Below are positions 1 to 5,938 of a stretch of 5,938 nucleotides of DNA, piece after piece. The stretch lies in IMG/VR virus record IMGVR_UViG_2695420596_000010. One strand, 5' to 3'. The notes beneath the pieces are model-generated. The model searched no databases. It was not told where the DNA came from and was given only the letters and a program-made list of their open reading frames with translations. Source of the stretch: a virus (lineage: Duplodnaviria; Heunggongvirae; Uroviricota; Caudoviricetes). How positions within the stretch are numbered: position 1 is the stretch's first letter; every line of letters begins with the position of its first letter. The translations under genes and the position numbers were made by a program.

Positions 1-678
1 GGTATAACAATCGACGATTGCTGGAAAGGCTGGGCCATACTCCTCCGGCAGAAGCAGAAAAAGCTTATTATGCTTCCATCGGAAACGATGATCTGGCAGC
101 CTGAGTTCACAGATAAAACACTCTCCAGGAAACCCGGGGCGGTTCACAGAGGATTCGCCAGAATTCTCGGACGAAAAAGGTTTTATATTGTCTTTTGTTA
201 GTTTGTCTTTTGTGTTTACCTGATTCGGGTAAACGCCTTTACCTGATTTGGGTAAACTTTTTTTACCTGATTCAGGTAAATTTACCTCTTTCAGGTAAAC
301 TTTATTTTTCTTACCTGATTCGGGTAATGTTGACCATTCACTGACCACATTATTAATGCCGATATTCCGCCCGCTCTGAATAAGAATCCCACGCTTTACC
401 AGAACGCTTTTTGCAGCAGAACACTTGTGCGGCAATATCCCGGTCAATTCGGAAAGTTGCTCGTTGCTCACCCAATCCAGTCTTTTATTAAAGCCATATG
501 TTTTGCGCATGACAGCCAGGAAGACCAGAAGCTGGTGCTGTGTTAATCCGGCCAGCATCACAGCTTCCAGCAACTCATTTGCAATGCGCGTATAACCATC
601 GTCGAGATCTGCCACGCGCCGCTCCTTTTGTGCCACATCCGGCACTGGAAAATTGAATATCTCAGCAGTGTTTGCCAT
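1..678 (-). CDS. Replication initiator, lambda O-like (N-terminal iteron-binding domain plus linker); partial, 3' end lies beyond the left edge of the window
   Basis: Manual translation of the minus strand from ATG (complement of 676-678), preceded by GGGAGG (complement of ~683-688), gives MANTAEIFNFPVPDVAQKERRVADLDDGYTRIANELLEAVMLAGLTQHQLLVFLAVMRKTYGFNKRLDWVSNEQLSELTGILPHKCSAAKSVLVKRGILIQSGRNIGINNVVSEWSTLPESGKK... with no stop before position 1. This resembles my recollection of the lambda O N-terminus (ADLDDGY..., LRKTYGWNK, SQLSE motifs). The iterons lie inside the coding sequence, as in lambda O. Absent from the supplied ORF track, presumably because the ORF is open at the window edge. 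Confidence 0.8.
   Translation of the reverse strand, partial: MANTAEIFNFPVPDVAQKERRVADLDDGYTRIANELLEAVMLAGLTQHQLLVFLAVMRKTYGFNKRLDWVSNEQLSELTGILPHKCSAAKSVLVKRGILIQSGRNIGINNVVSEWSTLPESGKKNKVYLKEVNLPESGKKSLPKSGKGVYPNQVNTKDKLTKDNIKPFSSENSGESSVNRPGFPGECFICELRLPDHRFRWKHNKLFLLLPEEYGPAFPAIVDCYT
181..214. other. AT-rich tract flanking the iterons (candidate DNA-unwinding element of the origin)
   Basis: ttttatattgtcttttgttagtttgtcttttgtg is strongly AT-rich and contains two copies of TTGTCTTTTGT. It lies on the gene-distal side of the iterons, the same relative arrangement as in ori-lambda. Confidence 0.5.
215..328. repeat. Origin iteron array: five ~19-bp direct repeats, each an internal dyad TTACC-N7-GGTAA
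   Basis: Read directly: TTTACCTGATTCGGGTAAAC (215-234), TTTACCTGATTTGGGTAAAC (238-257), TTTACCTGATTCAGGTAAA (262-280), TTTACCTCTTTCAGGTAAAC (281-300), TTACCTGATTCGGGTAAT (311-328). Spacing is 19-30 bp. Located within the O-like gene like ori-lambda iterons. Confidence 0.8.
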
Positions 679-764
679 AATTCCTCCCGCAATGAGTGTG
701 TTACGATTTGCACCTGAAAGTCGGTTCTGTTCGCGCAGACCGGCTTTCGCCATTTCCGAACCTG

Positions 765-1310
765 TCATATTGCCCCCAGCATGGTGGTGACCATCGCCAT
801 CAGTGGACCAGCCAAATCCGGGTCCACACGAAACATCGACACAATGCCTTCACTCATCTCCTTCAGTTTCTGGTGGCGTGGTGCGTTGAGAATGACAGCC
901 TGTTTTGCCTCACTGAGTTCCTTTTCCATTTCAGCCAGCCGAGCCATGTAGCTATCCTGCTCAACCAGGTGGCCGCGATATTCCAGCGGTAGTACCGCCA
1001 GAATTGCCGGGGTCAGTTCACGCACGTTATTTCGGTATTTTTCAGAATCGAATTTGTTATCGAGGAAGCGGAACAGCTTCTGGCGTGCACGGCTGACATC
1101 ATCAGGGAAATCGATGGTGCCGCCGCCCTGCTCCCGATACTCATTCACAATGAGTGCGGCAACAACATCCTGATTATCTGCAGCCGACCAGGCGCGAACG
1201 GCATCACGGATTTTTTCGTGGCCTGGCGCCTGTTTTGTTTGAGAACGATTTATCACCGCAGTCGGGCTAAATCCGCTAGTCTGTTGGTATGTAAGTGGTT
1301 GCATAGTCAT
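765..1310 (-). CDS. YdaT-like / CII-type phage regulatory protein (transcriptional regulator in the cII position)
   Basis: 181-aa ORF with ATG start and AAGG a few nt upstream, lying downstream of the cro-like gene on the same strand. Motifs EYREQGGG and PAILAVLPLEYRGHL resemble what I recall of YdaT-family proteins of Rac-type prophages. Family assignment is from memory only. Confidence 0.55.
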   Translation of the reverse strand: MTMQPLTYQQTSGFSPTAVINRSQTKQAPGHEKIRDAVRAWSAADNQDVVAALIVNEYREQGGGTIDFPDDVSRARQKLFRFLDNKFDSEKYRNNVRELTPAILAVLPLEYRGHLVEQDSYMARLAEMEKELSEAKQAVILNAPRHQKLKEMSEGIVSMFRVDPDLAGPLMAMVTTMLGAI

Positions 1311-1334
1311 TGCCTTATCAGTTAACGCCGCAGT

Positions 1335-1568
1335 TTAGGCGGCAGAATTACTCGCGTTAAACAATGGTGCGAGGTCGGGACGAATATCTGCTGGTTTAAT
1401 CTTTCCACCAGTGGCTGAGACAATTTTCATTACATAGCGGGCATCAATTCCGCCACCGTGTAGCCAACGCCAAACTGTGGGTTGGGCTACACCGCATAGA
1501 TCTGCCAGTCGTTTTTGACTACCTGTAATACTGATTGCGAGTTGAATGGTTTGATTTGTCATTATCAA
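1335..1568 (-). CDS. Cro/YdaS-like HTH DNA-binding protein (lytic-side repressor)
   Basis: 77-aa ORF divergent from the CI-like gene. Sequence GSQKRLADLCGVAQPTVWRWLHGG is a typical Cro/YdaS-type HTH. The track start at 1568 is a TTG codon; the in-frame ATG at 1560-1562 (MTNQ...) is the more likely start. Confidence 0.7.
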   Translation of the reverse strand: MIMTNQTIQLAISITGSQKRLADLCGVAQPTVWRWLHGGGIDARYVMKIVSATGGKIKPADIRPDLAPLFNASNSAA

Positions 1569-1593
1569 TTCCTATTGGTATTGCAATGAATGA

Positions 1594-1622
1594 ATAATAG
1601 CAATGCGTATTAATCCAAGCAA
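1594..1622 (-). promoter_or_regulatory. Candidate pR-like sigma70 promoter for the cro-like operon
   Basis: On the minus strand: -35 TTGCTT (complement of 1617-1622), 17-bp spacer, -10 TATTAT (complement of 1594-1599). The dyad at 1596-1611 overlaps the -10 and spacer. Found by eye, not scored. Confidence 0.4.
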
Positions 1623-1636
1623 TAGCAAAACGTGTT

Positions 1637-1665
1637 TTGACCATCAATACGCAAGCGTATAAATT
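1637..1665 (+). promoter_or_regulatory. Candidate pRM-like promoter producing a leaderless CI-like mRNA
   Basis: -35 TTGACC (1637-1642), 17-bp spacer, -10 TAAATT (1660-1665). The predicted start falls at about 1672-1673, on the ATG at 1673, and no Shine-Dalgarno precedes that ATG. The dyad at 1647-1660 overlaps the spacer. Confidence 0.4.
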
Positions 1666-1672
1666 AAAACTT

Positions 1673-2365
1673 ATGAAAAAAGAAACTCTTGCTGATCGCT
1701 TAAACCTAGCGATGGAACAATCTGGAATGTCTCAAGGCGCTCTTGCAAAGGCGTCTGGCGTAGCTCAACCCACAATCTGGAGACTGACAAGCGGCAACGC
1801 TCGCGGCTCAACAAAAATTGTTGAAATAGCTAATGCATTGGGTGTTCGAACAGAATGGCTCTCATCAGGCATAGGCCCGATGAGAAATGACGGTCAACAA
1901 TCAGGGAAGCCTGCTGTCAGCCATTCAAAATACTTCAAAATTGACGTTCTTGATATAGAAGTCAGTGCCGGGCCGGGAGTCATCAACCGTGAGTTTGTAG
2001 AAGTTCTACGCTCGGTTGAGTACTCGTTTGACGATGCTCGTCACATGTTCGATGGTAGGAAGGCAGAAAATATCCGCATCATTAACGTACGCGGTGACAG
2101 CATGTCAGGAACGATCGAACCAGGTGATCTTCTGTTCGTTGATATCACGGTTAAATCTTTCGACGGTGATGGTATCTATGCGTTTCTGTATGACGACACA
2201 GCCCATGTAAAGCGCCTGCAAATGATGAAGGATAAGCTGCTAGTTATCTCTGATAACAAGAGCTACTCACCGTGGGACCCGATCGAGAAAGACGAGATGA
2301 ACCGGGTATTCATCTTCGGGAAAGTCATCGGAAGCATGCCGCAGACGTATAGGAAGCATGGGTAG
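1673..2365 (+). CDS. CI-like prophage repressor: N-terminal XRE-type HTH plus C-terminal S24 (LexA-like) autopeptidase domain
   Basis: The track ORF 1637..2365 begins at a TTG; the first ATG is 1673 (MKKETLADRLNLAMEQSGMSQGALAKASGVAQPTIWRL = HTH). The C-terminal half has the S24 signatures: a candidate Ala-Gly cleavage site (EVSAGPG), the serine motif RGDSMSGTIEPGDLLFVD and the lysine motif HVKRL. This implies RecA/SOS-inducible autocleavage. Confidence 0.85.
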   Translation: MKKETLADRLNLAMEQSGMSQGALAKASGVAQPTIWRLTSGNARGSTKIVEIANALGVRTEWLSSGIGPMRNDGQQSGKPAVSHSKYFKIDVLDIEVSAGPGVINREFVEVLRSVEYSFDDARHMFDGRKAENIRIINVRGDSMSGTIEPGDLLFVDITVKSFDGDGIYAFLYDDTAHVKRLQMMKDKLLVISDNKSYSPWDPIEKDEMNRVFIFGKVIGSMPQTYRKHG

Positions 2366-2476
2366 TGAAGGACGTGTCAACTCTATTTTGTAAGCTATCC
2401 AGACTCACAGTTGCAGATCGACGAGTAACTTACATACAGCACAAAAAAACAATATGCACGTGCTTTTAGACTAGAC

Positions 2477-2491
2477 TTACCATAATGGTAA
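2477..2491. promoter_or_regulatory. Palindrome TTACC-ATAAT-GGTAA at the 5' end of the toxin gene; candidate autoregulatory operator of the TAC operon
   Basis: Perfect 5-bp inverted arms separated by 5 bp, overlapping the ATG at 2485. MqsA-family antitoxins are known to bind short palindromes in their own promoters; the assignment here is inference. Confidence 0.4.
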
Positions 2492-2895
2492 CAAGTATGA
2501 TTCTTAGCAGATATGTGGGAACTCCTCCCCGTGATGGCGAGGACAGAAAGATTCAAGGTGGTCCGCTTTATTTAGATATCATTGATTTGATTGATGAATG
2601 TGACACACTGCCTTGGACTAGACGGTGTATCAGGGATGTTCAATCGCTTTCTTTAGATGCAGATGACATCAAATCTATGGTGATAAAAGCAGTCACTAAA
2701 GGGAGATTTCTAGGTTCAGAATGGTGTCAAGGCAGTAAACCAGGTGTATGGGCAGCTTGTGATGCTTATAGCTTTGAGCACTCATTTTGGTGCCAAGCTA
2801 TGCATAAAGAACTTAATAACGAGTTCTACATTAAATTTTTTGTAAACATTACTGGCAATGTAGTGCTTACAGTATCTCTTCATCTCTCTAATTGA
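2485..2895 (+). CDS. MqsR-like toxin (type II toxin-antitoxin toxin, RelE/MqsR-fold mRNA interferase family)
   Basis: 136-aa ORF directly upstream of an MqsA-like antitoxin. By eye it aligns with E. coli MqsR (PLYLDIIDLI...LSLDADD..., EFYIKFFVNITGNVVLTVS versus MqsR QVYLKITVIHDVLIVSF). Toxin-before-antitoxin order is characteristic of mqsRA. The start is uncertain: 2485 has no clear RBS and 2497 is an in-frame alternative. The region is AT-rich. Confidence 0.6.
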   Translation: MVTSMILSRYVGTPPRDGEDRKIQGGPLYLDIIDLIDECDTLPWTRRCIRDVQSLSLDADDIKSMVIKAVTKGRFLGSEWCQGSKPGVWAACDAYSFEHSFWCQAMHKELNNEFYIKFFVNITGNVVLTVSLHLSN

Positions 2896-2919
2896 GTGAT
2901 GATAAATGAGGATTTTTAT

Positions 2920-3507
2920 ATGAGAAACAACAACATATGTCCAGTTTGTGGTGTAGGTCATCTCACCGTGGAGATGGAGTATGATGATGTTACTTATAAA
3001 GGGGAAACAAAAAATCTCCCAATAAGGTTTTCTGTGTGTGATCAATGTGGTTCGGAAACTGCCACACCAGTCGATTTACGAGAAAACAAACGAATTTTCA
3101 ATGAATACAAAAAGTCTATCGATGGACTTTTAACAGGAAAAGAATTAAAAAAAATTAGAACTGAAGTATGGATGATAACCCAGCAAAAGGCATCCTCTAT
3201 ATTTGGTGGGGGGCCTAAGGCATTTTCCAAGTATGAATCTGATGATGTCATTCAATCAGAAGCAATGGATAAACTGATGCGTTTAGCAGCAGAAGTTCCT
3301 GATGCATTCAAAAGGTTACGGGAATTATCTGGCGAAATCAAAGTTGAAAGAACAGTCTCATCATCTAAATCTTTACCTATATGGAAATCTGAAGCAAAAG
3401 CACAATTTGAAAACGATGATCAGGGATTTGACAGCAAATCACCAGCCCAAACAAAAATGAATCAAACATCAATAAAGATAAAAACTGTTGCTAAGCGGGT
3501 AGCATGA
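2920..3507 (+). CDS. MqsA-like antitoxin: N-terminal zinc-ribbon, central XRE-type HTH, and a ~60-70-aa C-terminal extension (candidate chaperone-addiction segment)
   Basis: Motifs CPVCGVGHL and VCDQCGSE (zinc ribbon), then ITQQKASSIFGGGPKAFSKYESDD, closely resembling the MqsA HTH (LTQKEASEIFGGGVNAFSRYEKG). GAGGA (2908-2912) sits 7 nt upstream of ATG 2920. The track ORF begins at GTG 2896, immediately after the toxin stop (2893-2895). The C-terminal tail (from ~3300) has no counterpart in the 131-aa E. coli MqsA. Confidence 0.8.
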   Translation: MRNNNICPVCGVGHLTVEMEYDDVTYKGETKNLPIRFSVCDQCGSETATPVDLRENKRIFNEYKKSIDGLLTGKELKKIRTEVWMITQQKASSIFGGGPKAFSKYESDDVIQSEAMDKLMRLAAEVPDAFKRLRELSGEIKVERTVSSSKSLPIWKSEAKAQFENDDQGFDSKSPAQTKMNQTSIKIKTVAKRVA

Positions 3508-4007
3508 TGAATGAACTTCTTAGATCAGCAATAGACGCATTATCAATAATGCATATCAATATCAGAGAATCTAACTTTGCTTTTTCTGAAGGGTATAATA
3601 GCTTTAACTTCAACAGCATAAATAAGCAAACACAATCATTTCGTAAGATAAAAAAAATCGAAGCTATTGAATTAGTAAGTGACGATGACTCATTAAAAAA
3701 TGAGCTATATTACTCTTTTCACTACTCAGTTGGGCTTAGATTTATTGCAAAATCCGAAGAAACATCTAAAGACGAAAATGATGTTGATACAATTTTTTCT
3801 ATAGAAGCAATTTTTGAGGCGATATATCGCTCAAAGAGAGAATTATCTAAAGAAGAGTTAGAAGAATTTGCTAAGCAAAATGTAGGTTTTAATGTATGGC
3901 CTTTTTGGCGAGAGTATGTTCAAAACAGCACATCCAGAATGGGAATTACTACAATAGCTATACCATTCTTTAAATTCAATAAATCAGACATACCTTCATT
4001 AGATTAA
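3504..4007 (+). CDS. SecB-like chaperone (third component of a toxin-antitoxin-chaperone module)
   Basis: 167-aa ORF whose ATG overlaps the antitoxin stop (ATGA at 3504-3507), suggesting translational coupling. The C-terminal half aligns by eye with E. coli SecB (TIFSIEAIF versus GIFSIAGI; NVWPFWREYVQNSTSRMGITTIAIPFFKFN versus [29 protein letters not shown]). Confidence 0.7.
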   Translation: MMNELLRSAIDALSIMHINIRESNFAFSEGYNSFNFNSINKQTQSFRKIKKIEAIELVSDDDSLKNELYYSFHYSVGLRFIAKSEETSKDENDVDTIFSIEAIFEAIYRSKRELSKEELEEFAKQNVGFNVWPFWREYVQNSTSRMGITTIAIPFFKFNKSDIPSLD

Positions 4008-4021
4008 ATTCAAATATAACT

Positions 4022-4048
4022 CCCGGCTACCGTGCCGGGTTTTCTTTT
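4022..4048 (+). terminator. Rho-independent terminator of the TAC operon
   Basis: Stem CCCGGC (4022-4027), loop TACCGT, stem GCCGGG (4034-4039), followed by TTTTCTTTT (4040-4048), 15 nt after the chaperone stop codon. Confidence 0.65.
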
Positions 4049-4189
4049 GCCCTCCCCCCATCACACAAACCGTTCAAAAAACCACCACGACCTCACTTCA
4101 GTTATCGCTATGCGATGCAAGTCACAAAATTAATTCTTTTTGCTATCAAACATTTAATATCAAAACACATCAACTAATAGCAATAAGCA

Positions 4190-4218
4190 TTGATATCACC
4201 AATAGCAATAGCTATTAT
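4190..4218 (+). promoter_or_regulatory. Candidate pL-like promoter with overlapping operator dyad (OL-like)
   Basis: -35 TTGATA (4190-4195), 17-bp spacer, -10 TATTAT (4213-4218), reading towards int. The dyad AATAGC-AATA-GCTATT (4201-4216) overlaps the spacer and -10, and matches 13 of 16 positions of the OR-region site AATAGCAATGCGTATT (1596-1611). Confidence 0.5.
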
Positions 4219-4411
4219 CACCATATCGCAACAACACAACGATACGGCAACCACCTGATTCACCGTTGCGATGACCGCTTAGATCCGCAGCTTGAATTTC
4301 AGCAGGCTTCGGGGAGTGCGAGGGATGAAACGGACGCGTGAACGTCGGTGTGACCAGCTGAAATCAACTCAACATTTCATACCTTAGTCGCTTCAACGAG
4401 GCGGCTTAGTT

Positions 4412-4702
4412 ATGACAACCGGCGGCCATCCACCGCCTGAATACGCGCAGAAGTCTTTATATGTTCAGCAGCCCAGCTTACGGGCAGGAGTTTTTATGGT
4501 TCATCAACATTACGGAACGCAGACCGTTAATCGCGGTGCGGTCATGCCAGGAATGCTGGTCAAACGCAAAGATGGTACCTGGACTGCATCAGCTAATTTA
4601 CACGGACGACTTTATCTGCATCGCGGCATTGAGCGCACTTATACCCGTGACTTGCTCGTGGAAGTTTTTCTCGACGGACGCGGCAACGGTCTGAATCACT
4701 AA
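4412..4702 (+). CDS. Hypothetical protein (no recognisable family)
   Basis: 96-aa ORF with ATG and a weak GAGG ~10 nt upstream, between the pL-like promoter and int. No recognisable motif; it is not lambda-Xis-like or N-like. An alternative-frame ORF (4461..4694) overlaps it, so coding status is uncertain. Confidence 0.3.
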   Translation: MTTGGHPPPEYAQKSLYVQQPSLRAGVFMVHQHYGTQTVNRGAVMPGMLVKRKDGTWTASANLHGRLYLHRGIERTYTRDLLVEVFLDGRGNGLNH

Positions 4703-4777
4703 TCCCCTTTCCTGTTTTCCGAATCAGCCTGGCATTCCGCGGGCGATTTTTTCACAGCCATTTTCAGGAGTTCAGCC

Positions 4778-5938
4778 ATGAACGCTTATTACATTCAGGA
4801 TCGTCTTGAGGCTCAGAGCTGGGCGCGTCACTACCAGCAGATCGCCCGTGAAGAGAAAGAGGCAGAACTGGCAGACGACATGGAAAAAGGCCTGCCCCAG
4901 CACCTGTTTGAATCGCTATGTATCGATCATTTGCAACGCCACGGGGCCAGCAAAAAAGCCATTAAAGAGTTTGGATTAGGCAGAGACAGGCGAATCGCAA
5001 TCACTGAAGCTATACAGGCCAACATTGAGTTATTTTCAGGACACAAACACAAGCCTCTGACAGCGAGAATCAACAGTGATAATTCCGTTACGTTACATTC
5101 ATGGCTTGATCGCTACGAAAAAATCCTGGCCAGCAGAGGAATCAAACAGAAGACACTCATAAATTACATGAGCAAAATTAAAGCAATAAGGAGGGGTCTG
5201 CCTGATGCTCCACTTGAAGACATCACCACAAAAGAAATTGCGGCAATGCTCAATGGATACATAAACGAGGGCAAGGCGGCGTCAGCCAAGTTAATCAGAT
5301 CAACACTGAGCGATGCATTCCGAGAGGCAATAGCTGAAGGCCATATAACAACAAACCCTGTCGCTGCCACTCGCGCAGCAAAATCAGAGGTAAGGAGATC
5401 AAGACTTACGGCTGACGAATACCTGAAAATTTATCAAGCAGCAGAATCATCACCATGTTGGCTCAGACTTGCAATGGAACTGGCTGTTGTTACCGGGCAA
5501 CGAGTTGGTGATTTATGCGAAATGAAGTGGTCTGATATCGTAGATGGATATCTTTATGTCGAGCAAAGCAAAACAGGCGTAAAAATTGCCATCCCAACAG
5601 CATTGCATGTTGATGCTCTCGGAATATCAATGAAGGAAACACTTGATAAATGCAAAGAGATTCTTGGCGGAGAAACCATAATTGCATCTACTCGTCGCGA
5701 ACCGCTTTCATCCGGCACAGTATCAAGGTATTTTATGCGCGCACGAAAAGCATCAGGTCTTTCCTTCGAAGGGGATCCGCCTACCTTTCACGAGTTGCGC
5801 AGTTTGTCTGCAAGACTCTATGAGAAGCAGATAAGCGATAAGTTTGCTCAACATCTTCTCGGGCATAAGTCGGACACCATGGCATCACAGTATCGTGATG
5901 ACAGAGGCAGGGAGTGGGACAAAATTGAAATCAAATAA
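4778..5938 (+). CDS. int: Tyrosine site-specific integrase, lambda Int family; catalytic region near-identical to lambda Int, N-terminal ~66 aa unrelated (chimeric)
   Basis: From [38 protein letters not shown]... to the C-terminal ...[49 protein letters not shown] the protein matches my recollection of lambda Int almost residue for residue, including the catalytic motifs (R in GQRVGDL, HELR, LLGH, tyrosine in SQYRDD). The first ~66 aa ([21 protein letters not shown]...) do not match the lambda Int arm-binding domain. AGGAG lies 7 nt upstream of the ATG. Confidence 0.9.

Follow-up and report, generated by a model that had tools for sequence, protein, structure and literature searches.

The window, i.e. 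the whole stretch of 5,938 nucleotides that was analysed, was mapped by open reading frame (ORF) lists and profile searches. It begins with the end of an IS3-family element (1-146, IS629/IS1203-like), which lies within the replication gene O and cuts it at 146/147, leaving a truncated O at 768-147 on the minus strand. Five ori iterons (215-336) are present inside the O region. A CII-like gene of the YdaT family (1304-765) and a Cro-like gene of the YdaS family (1568-1335) were identified by profile search on the same strand, with a gap of only 30 nt between them. OR (approximately 1570-1672) is located upstream of cI (1673-2365, plus strand), the product of which carries HTH and S24 peptidase domains by profile search. 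A three-gene TAC cassette (2485-4007) encodes a 136-aa protein, an MqsA-type antitoxin and a SecB-like chaperone, and the antitoxin-chaperone cassette occupies the rexAB position. The 136-aa TAC toxin gave no match in PADLOC, Pfam or NCBIfam, and the chaperone showed a weak match to Pfam SecB (E=0.008) and is likewise named SecB in RefSeq. The cI-toxin-antitoxin-chaperone operon is closed by an intrinsic terminator on the plus strand (about 4022-4049), which consists of a 6-bp all-GC stem and a T run (dG -13.1 kcal/mol, z=-2.9) and has the position of lambda tImm. The spacer that follows (4049-4136, plus strand) is conserved across relatives with other cargo genes and other operators, as revealed by alignment of six phages and prophages.

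An OL-like operator region extends from 4137 to 4224 on the plus strand. Its part 4175-4224 is a 50-nt direct repeat of 1595-1644 in OR, with 72% identity, and the motif AATAGCAAT occurs in the whole window only at 1596 (OR), 4176 and 4201. In alignments with relatives that carry a different cI (L007-L009), 4137-4224 diverged and both flanks stayed conserved. Divergence confined to this region is the pattern expected for immunity-specific operators, which we consider it to represent. A sigma-70-like promoter resembling pL (4190-4218, plus strand) has a -35 element TTGATA at 4190, a 17-bp spacer and a -10 element TATTAT at 4213, with 10 of 12 consensus matches. The count of promoter-like matches in the scanned region was not above shuffled expectation, and the pL call is credible because of its location inside the operator repeats, not from the consensus match alone. 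A repressor-controlled pL sharing its operators with OR, as in a lambda-type early-left operon, is therefore predicted here. The promoter given in the preliminary description was thus reproduced, as was its short distance to int, the ATG (4778) of the integrase-ending ORF being about 560 bp downstream. No N, bet, exo or xis was found between the pL-like promoter and 4778.

The same interval had been said to contain no kil-type gene, only a small unknown ORF (4412-4702). Profile searches contradict this. ORF 4412-4702 matched PHROG 294, "Kil protein for bacterial septation inhibition" (E=4.3e-37), and NCBIfam NF008465, the KilR "FtsZ inhibitor" (E=7e-16), where residues 29-96 of the ORF aligned with positions 1-70 of the 73 in the profile. 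The score against NF008465 was 58 bits, under the curated 92-bit subfamily cut-off. Judged by these matches, the product of 4496-4702 is a member of the KilR/PHROG 294 family and not a KilR equivalog. BLASTP comparison with KilR of Rac revealed 34% identity (E=1e-10) in an alignment beginning exactly at Met29, encoded by the ATG at 4496, while the 47-aa Kil of lambda gave no alignment at E<=100. A strong Shine-Dalgarno (SD) sequence, AGGAG (4485-4489), lies six bases 5' of this ATG, RefSeq annotates kil as a 207-nt CDS, and in the relative Turner a 1-nt deletion just upstream of the kil ATG would break the longer frame. On the basis of the KilR alignment start, the SD sequence, the RefSeq CDS and the Turner deletion, kil was assigned to 4496-4702 on the plus strand, with ATG 4496 as the probable true start and a 68-aa putative FtsZ/cell-division inhibitor of the KilR family as its product.

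Comparison with intact relatives was decisive for the genes that had been considered lost. Over 4049-4777 the window is colinear with the complete 48,757-bp phage PhiR70_1 (PV340577) at 99.7% identity; this phage has the same leader, kil and gam start as the window and also shares its cI, TAC cargo, OL/pL and lambda-type int. Identity is 90-95% to Perceval, 4A7, IdasGreatGrand, Turner and PhiR47_2. Perceval, a prophage of E. coli LF82 (OV696612, genus Bievrevirus), is 95% identical over 4049-4777 with the same leader, kil and gam start, and produces virions as an active prophage (PMC9928086). In all six relatives pL reads directly into kil and gam, in the order cI, variable cargo, OL/pL, kil, gam, bet, exo...xis, int, with nothing else between pL and kil. 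In PhiR70_1 the counterpart of 4049-4777 leads into gam, bet, exo, orf60a, orf63, orf61, a TraR-like gene, xis and int. The intact relatives likewise have no N, cIII, ea10 or ral, and the full annotation of PhiR70_1 lists Q and not N. Since intact relatives are devoid of N, cIII and ral, the compact N-less early-left operon is a trait of the lineage and not a scar. The view that N, cIII, kil, gam/bet/exo and xis had all been lost has to be replaced accordingly: the relatives natively lack N and cIII, kil has been kept, and about 3.2 kb has been deleted. As the operon is compact in intact relatives as well, no deletion of N is indicated. Of 5,426 complete E. coli genomes, 2,023 contain at least 80% of 4049-4777, which covers OL/pL, the leader and kil as far as the start of gam. 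Lambda is thus a poor template for judging missing genes in a very common E. coli prophage lineage that is natively N-less and cIII-less, and for the same reason a missing N is not evidence of deletion.

The approximately 360 bp described earlier as non-coding is the native pL leader of this phage lineage, and it carries an upstream ORF as well as a conserved element that is structured. The leader runs for about 270 nt before the kil module, and alignment of relatives showed its 5' part (4225-4374, plus strand) to be lineage-specific. As a whole, the 276-nt leader folds no better than its shuffles (z=0.04), and only the sub-element 4376-4445 is structured. No ORF within 4219-4778 had a PHROG, Pfam or NCBIfam match to N, and no N gene lies directly 3' of pL, where a lambda-type N-dependent operon has it. 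A mini-ORF of 20 arginine-rich codons (ATG 4323 to TAG 4387, plus strand; MKRTRERRCDQLKSTQHFIP) resembled the arginine-rich motif of N in its beginning, MKRTRERR, and was considered as an N remnant, but was rejected as evidence. A tblastn search of 50,697 phage records returned homologues of it only inside the lineage, and a boxB-like partner was not apparent. A TAG-to-CAG change joins this mini-ORF with kil in Perceval, PhiR47_2 and Turner. The Rfam scan of the window was silent for put- or nut-like RNA; Rfam holds no put or nut model, and control scans of HK022 and lambda were likewise silent at put/nut. None of the 25 longest inverted-repeat pairs (the best 25 of 76) links the pL leader with the pR side, and the leader showed no similarity to the region upstream of kilS/kilR in Rac. 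Most other phages with the same kil module have an intrinsic terminator immediately upstream of it, whereas none is present there in the PhiR70_1/Perceval lineage.

Downstream of kil, a weak terminator-like hairpin in the kil-gam gap (4727-4751, plus strand) was not significant by folding (z=-1.4), and the sequence of this region, just 5' of gam, is 90% identical to that upstream of the short gam of lambda. The ORF starting at 4778 had been described as a chimeric int, and Pfam and lambda alignments showed that Gam residues 1-62 are fused in frame to Int residues 33-356 in it. Its first part, gam' (4778-4964, plus strand), comprises codons 1-62 of the short form of Gam. It matched positions 1-64 of 98 in Pfam PF06064 (E=1.8e-38), and 60 of its 62 residues are identical to lambda Gam. 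The match to lambda Gam stops at residue 62, so the 98-residue Gam domain is incomplete. The second part, 'int (4965-5938, plus strand), contains residues 63-386 of the fusion, which are identical to lambda Int 33-356 at 321 of 324 positions and free of stops. The catalytic domain is complete (Phage_integrase PF00589, positions 2-168 of 172, E=2e-40), while the arm-binding domain is not, as only positions 38-74 of the 74 in the Arm-DNA-bind_1 profile were matched. The statement that recombination genes are missing hence stands for bet and exo and fails for gam, codons 1-62 of which lie in the int ORF.

The breakpoints of the deletion were located by blastn against PhiR70_1, where window position 4964 corresponds to PhiR70_1 9916 and window position 4963 to PhiR70_1 13148, and identical breakpoints were obtained against the whole PhiR70_1 record. 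The junction (4963-4964) displays a 2-bp TA microhomology, with the flanks GCCATTA|CCCGTG on the gam side and GACGGG|TAAAGAG on the int side, and joins gam codon 62 in frame to int codon 33. Relative to PhiR70_1, 3,231 bp have been deleted, comprising the 3' end of gam, bet, exo, orf60a, orf63, orf61, the traR-like gene, xis and 32 codons of int. A 160-bp junction probe was found complete in exactly 12 of 5,426 complete E. coli genomes. That the junction might be an assembly or chimera artefact has a practically negligible probability: it has no specific support, and the identical junction recurs in 12 complete genomes, independently assembled and originating from several laboratories and countries. 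RefSeq annotates both gam and the integrase as pseudogenes in genomes with the same junction.

Might selection have kept the Gam'-'Int fusion as a working new protein, such as an arm-independent recombinase that uses the translation signals of gam? In favour of this, the two parts share one reading frame, the SD sequence and ATG of the native gam are retained, and the catalytic domain is 99% identical to that of lambda Int without stops. However, one-third of deletions would be in frame by chance, and since the allele is recent and near-clonal, an intact ORF is uninformative on selection. Further, half of the arm-binding domain is all that is left and Xis is gone, and in lambda the binding of Int to arm sites is required for attL x attR recombination. 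We therefore regard a selected neo-protein as very unlikely.

The extent of the element beyond the window was extrapolated from the closest complete genomes, which leads one to expect about 17 kb plus the IS between ybhC and ybhB. Over window positions 147-5938, 11 complete genomes, mostly of poultry isolates, are 99.9-100% identical, and a twelfth is 99.5% identical; these are the same 12 that contain the junction. The allele looks recent, as it is both rare (12 of 5,426) and almost invariant (11 of the 12 at least 99.9% identical). In strain Z1323CEC0003, the genome of which is 100% identical to the window over 147-5938, the element lies between ybhC and ybhB, i.e. at att-lambda. In PhiR70_1 coordinates it consists of 1-1050, 4282-17807, an IS1 and 46792-48757, a remnant of 17,308 bp. 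An exact att core was detected on its int side only. Besides the 3,231-bp deletion it has suffered a second one of 28,984 bp (PhiR70_1 17808-46791), which is replaced by IS1 and has removed the lysis, head and tail genes. The AraC and IS2-fragment genes at the att-lambda end of PhiR70_1 are also present in the remnant. Compared with PhiR70_1 and Perceval, the window thus lacks 3,231 bp (from the 3' end of gam to int codon 32) and has an IS in O, and its closest complete genomes lack in addition the 28,984 bp of late genes. The IS/O junction (146/147) was not found in any of the 5,426 complete E. coli genomes, and for that reason the strain of the window appears to be one step further decayed. 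The earlier proposal of a deletion-bearing defective remnant is borne out by these genomes, in which a 17.3-kb element without lysis, head or tail genes resides at att-lambda. A full-length inducible prophage, named earlier as the outcome that would overturn that proposal, is not what the nearest genomes contain.

As an alternative, a natural minimal or satellite-like element had been offered; in this reading the element would be mobile and possess its own compact pL-int module. Small size and the lack of structural genes would suit such an element. The remnant is nevertheless base-for-base colinear with a complete phage, being PhiR70_1 minus two deletions plus IS elements; both breakpoints of the gam-int deletion fall inside ORFs and leave truncated domains. 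Hallmarks of PICI- or P4-like satellites, e.g. an own primase/replicase or capsid-redirecting genes, were not present, and mobility is unlikely because xis is absent and the arm-binding domain of Int is cut. This alternative is extremely improbable.

The preliminary description had gone further, attributing the short interval to extensive deletion of N, cIII, kil, gam/bet/exo and xis, with repressor, TAC cargo and origin kept by selection, as in a domesticated defence island. It is true that the element is a remnant produced by deletions and that cI and the MqsA-type antitoxin/SecB-like chaperone cassette, at the rexAB position, have been kept; TAC systems can mediate phage defence, according to a preprint (bioRxiv 10.1101/2024.02.24.581848). 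Against it, N and cIII are missing from intact relatives too, which already refutes the deletion of N, and kil and 62 codons of gam are present. Selection for the origin is contradicted by the IS3-family element that truncates O in the window itself. Selection for the repressor and TAC is not demonstrable, as an allele found in 12 of 5,426 genomes, almost invariant and apparently recent, offers no time depth for inferring it. Retention of cI would be explained more simply by the toxicity of Kil and the YdaS/YdaT-family proteins on derepression, by analogy with Rac. In Rac, RacR is essential since it silences the toxic ydaS/ydaT (PMC5700373). Loss of cI from the present element is likewise likely to be deleterious, and its retention can thus be explained without domestication, because derepression would release Kil and the YdaS/YdaT-family proteins. 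The repressor-controlled kil and the YdaS/YdaT-type early genes kept by the remnant would make its repressor hard to lose. We consider a domesticated defence island unlikely.

The window is instead, with high confidence, the immunity and early-left end of a defective, decaying lambda-like prophage of the Perceval/PhiR70_1 type at att-lambda, in which the short pL-int distance resulted from one deletion on a natively compact backbone. In the lineage, pL under the control of cI would read the leader, the KilR-type kil and then gam-bet-exo...xis-int. A single illegitimate recombination at the 2-bp TA microhomology is proposed to have removed 3,231 bp and fused gam to int in frame. As long as cI occupies OL, pL would be silent; once RecA stimulates the S24-type cI to cleave itself, both pL and pR would open. 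Open pL is predicted to start transcription near 4225 and to give Kil, which may block division, and the Gam'-'Int hybrid, and open pR the YdaS- and YdaT-family proteins along with truncated O. Such a hybrid would lack the C-terminal third of Gam together with half of the arm-binding domain of Int, and xis is no longer present. Since Int arm binding is cut and Xis is lost, we infer that self-excision of the element should fail. In the closest complete genomes the second, IS1-associated 29-kb deletion has taken every lysis and morphogenesis gene. The whole amounts to ordinary prophage decay, and the finding as originally stated is routine, the pseudogenes of gam and int having already been annotated in RefSeq.

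The element resembles lambda in cI, accessory cargo, terminator and OL/pL, all with the same reading direction, and in gam (60 of 62 residues), int (321 of 324 residues) and the sequence 5' of gam (90% identity). The lambda operon, however, reads pL-N-...-cIII-kil-gam-bet-exo-xis-int, and the window has no N, nutL, ea10, ral or cIII. Its Kil is unrelated to the 47-aa Kil of lambda, and YdaS/YdaT-family proteins replace Cro and CII. Rac of E. coli K-12 (racR/ydaS-ydaT/kilR) is similar as a defective lambdoid remnant with a repressor over a KilR-type gene (34% identity between window Kil and KilR) and YdaS/YdaT-family early genes. It differs in having RacR in contrast to the S24 type of cI in the window, a dissimilar leader upstream of kilS/kilR, a RecET recombination module and a different attachment site. 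The cryptic prophage DLP12 shares the block ren-emrE-ybcK-ybcL-ybcM-ybcN-ninE-ybcO-rusA-ylcG-quuD-porin, as well as IS-associated deletion as a route of decay. DLP12 is located at argU and has lost its immunity region, whereas the element of the window is at att-lambda and keeps cI, cro, OL and OR.

The hairpin and upstream ORF of the leader form a small separate lead, and perhaps the sole part of this locus that would repay further work. Covariation and local folding identified a conserved, interrupted RNA hairpin at 4377-4415 (plus strand; local fold -25.4 kcal/mol, z=-4.08), masking both an SD-like GAGG (4398-4401) and AUG 4412. Its 3' arm holds the SD-like GAG(G), and its outer stem pairs a conserved CAUA box with AUG 4412. 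The whole hairpin comprises 15 pairs, with 96.4% of cells paired and compensatory changes at 7 pairs, and its covariation (0.474) was reached by none of 500 shuffles (0.151), with slid controls at or below 0.08. For the inner 8 pairs, 97% of cells were paired and 6 pairs showed compensatory changes, with covariation of 0.83 as compared to 0.26 in shuffles (0 of 500 reaching it; slid controls at or below 0.12). The sequence of this inner stem varies freely and the pairing is kept. By blastn of the leader, a short conserved piece (4375-4437) was also found in HK225, phi80, Klebsiella phage KO-TP1 and Enterobacter phages, and an exact-pattern scan detected it in at least 120 IMG/VR contigs. The element has no RefSeq annotation and no Rfam entry, the peptide string MTTGGHPPP did not occur in the searchable literature, and nothing directly relevant was found in literature on PhiR phages, KilS or the upstream-ORF peptide.

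The conserved upstream ORF (4412-4495, plus strand; MTTGGHPPP...) has no stop in the window and runs in frame into kil. Elsewhere it is usually 16-21 aa long with variable tails, frequently ending in EVLY. A relaxed scan revealed synonymous changes and one in-frame codon insertion keeping GGHPPP, and also two amino-acid changes and two frameshifts, which lends modest support to conservation as a peptide. In most phages the hairpin and upstream ORF are preceded directly by an intrinsic terminator and followed by kil. They could plausibly act to gate translation of the toxic kil module. We suggest, as a tentative possibility short of being probable, that a hairpin burying the SD sequence and start of a polyproline leader peptide represents a widespread cis-regulatory module, not described before, in the early-left operons of lambdoid phages. 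If so, it could gate translation or transcription of the kil module, with EF-P-dependent ribosome stalling at PPP, temperature and Rho access as conceivable routes. In other phages kil lies 85-770 nt downstream of the upstream ORF in any of the three frames, and the in-frame run-on of the upstream ORF into kil is therefore lineage-specific.

The pL leader carries, between positions 4377 and 4437, an RNA element consisting of a conserved hairpin (4377-4415), the pairing of which is supported by covariation, and a second small hairpin in its 3' part (4421-4437). A polyproline upstream ORF, MTTGGHPPP..., begins at the ATG at 4412, upstream of kil, and both its SD sequence and its AUG are buried by the 4377-4415 hairpin. 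At least 120 viral contigs carry this hairpin/upstream-ORF element 5' of kil, as do phi80, HK225 and KO-TP1, and outside the window it mostly lies directly 3' of an intrinsic terminator. It is missing from Rfam and from RefSeq annotation, and no mention of it was found in the searchable literature. The order in phi80 (X13065, 5286-5660) is the 98-aa 'N gene', as annotated in the 1988 record, then an intrinsic terminator, and then the element as in the window; the 'N gene' product does not possess an arginine-rich N-terminus. The 5' region of kilR in the K-12 Rac prophage contains a small RNA annotated in RefSeq as KilS (7406-7503 of the Rac locus compared), with which the kil leader of the window showed no detectable sequence similarity.

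The same leader also harbours an arginine-rich mini-ORF of 20 codons (MKRTRERRCDQLKSTQHFIP; 4323-4387), which is read in the same frame as both the upstream ORF and kil. In the relatives Perceval, PhiR47_2 and Turner, CAG takes the place of its TAG stop, thereby giving rise to the 128-139-aa 'Kil' annotations in these phages. Variation of the mini-ORF among relatives comprised ATG/GTG and one synonymous change, and homologues were not found outside the lineage.

The interval from cI to the conserved spacer of 88 bp (4049-4136) that precedes OL/pL is a cargo hot spot, as revealed by comparison of window positions 2485-4136 with relatives. The toxin-antitoxin-chaperone (TAC) cassette occupies this slot in the window and in the intact phage PhiR70_1, GevT/GevA in PhiR47_2 and other genes in Perceval, while the slot is empty in Turner; rexAB takes the equivalent position in lambda. 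The first gene of the TAC cassette (2485-2895) encodes the presumed toxin of 136 aa, which had no matches in Pfam, PHROGs, PADLOC or NCBIfam.

An IS3-family end (1-146), IS629/IS1203-like with about 94-97% identity, is inserted in the replication gene O (147-768) approximately 70 bp from the ori iterons, and cuts O off after residue 207. This IS/O junction was absent from all 5,426 complete E. coli genomes, thus placing the source strain outside that collection. Among the 12 carriers of the gam::int junction, NZ_CP148426.1 matched the 160-bp junction probe at no more than 94.4% identity, as compared to 99.5% over the whole window, which suggests that this copy later recombined with another lambdoid prophage. 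The prophage remnant of the closest complete genome (NZ_CP148493.1, 1589464-1606771) has undergone a second deletion, of 28,984 bp (PhiR70_1 positions 17808-46791), wherein IS1 stands in place of the lysis, head and tail genes, and an exact lambda att core (GCTTTTTTATACTAA) could be located in it on the int side only.
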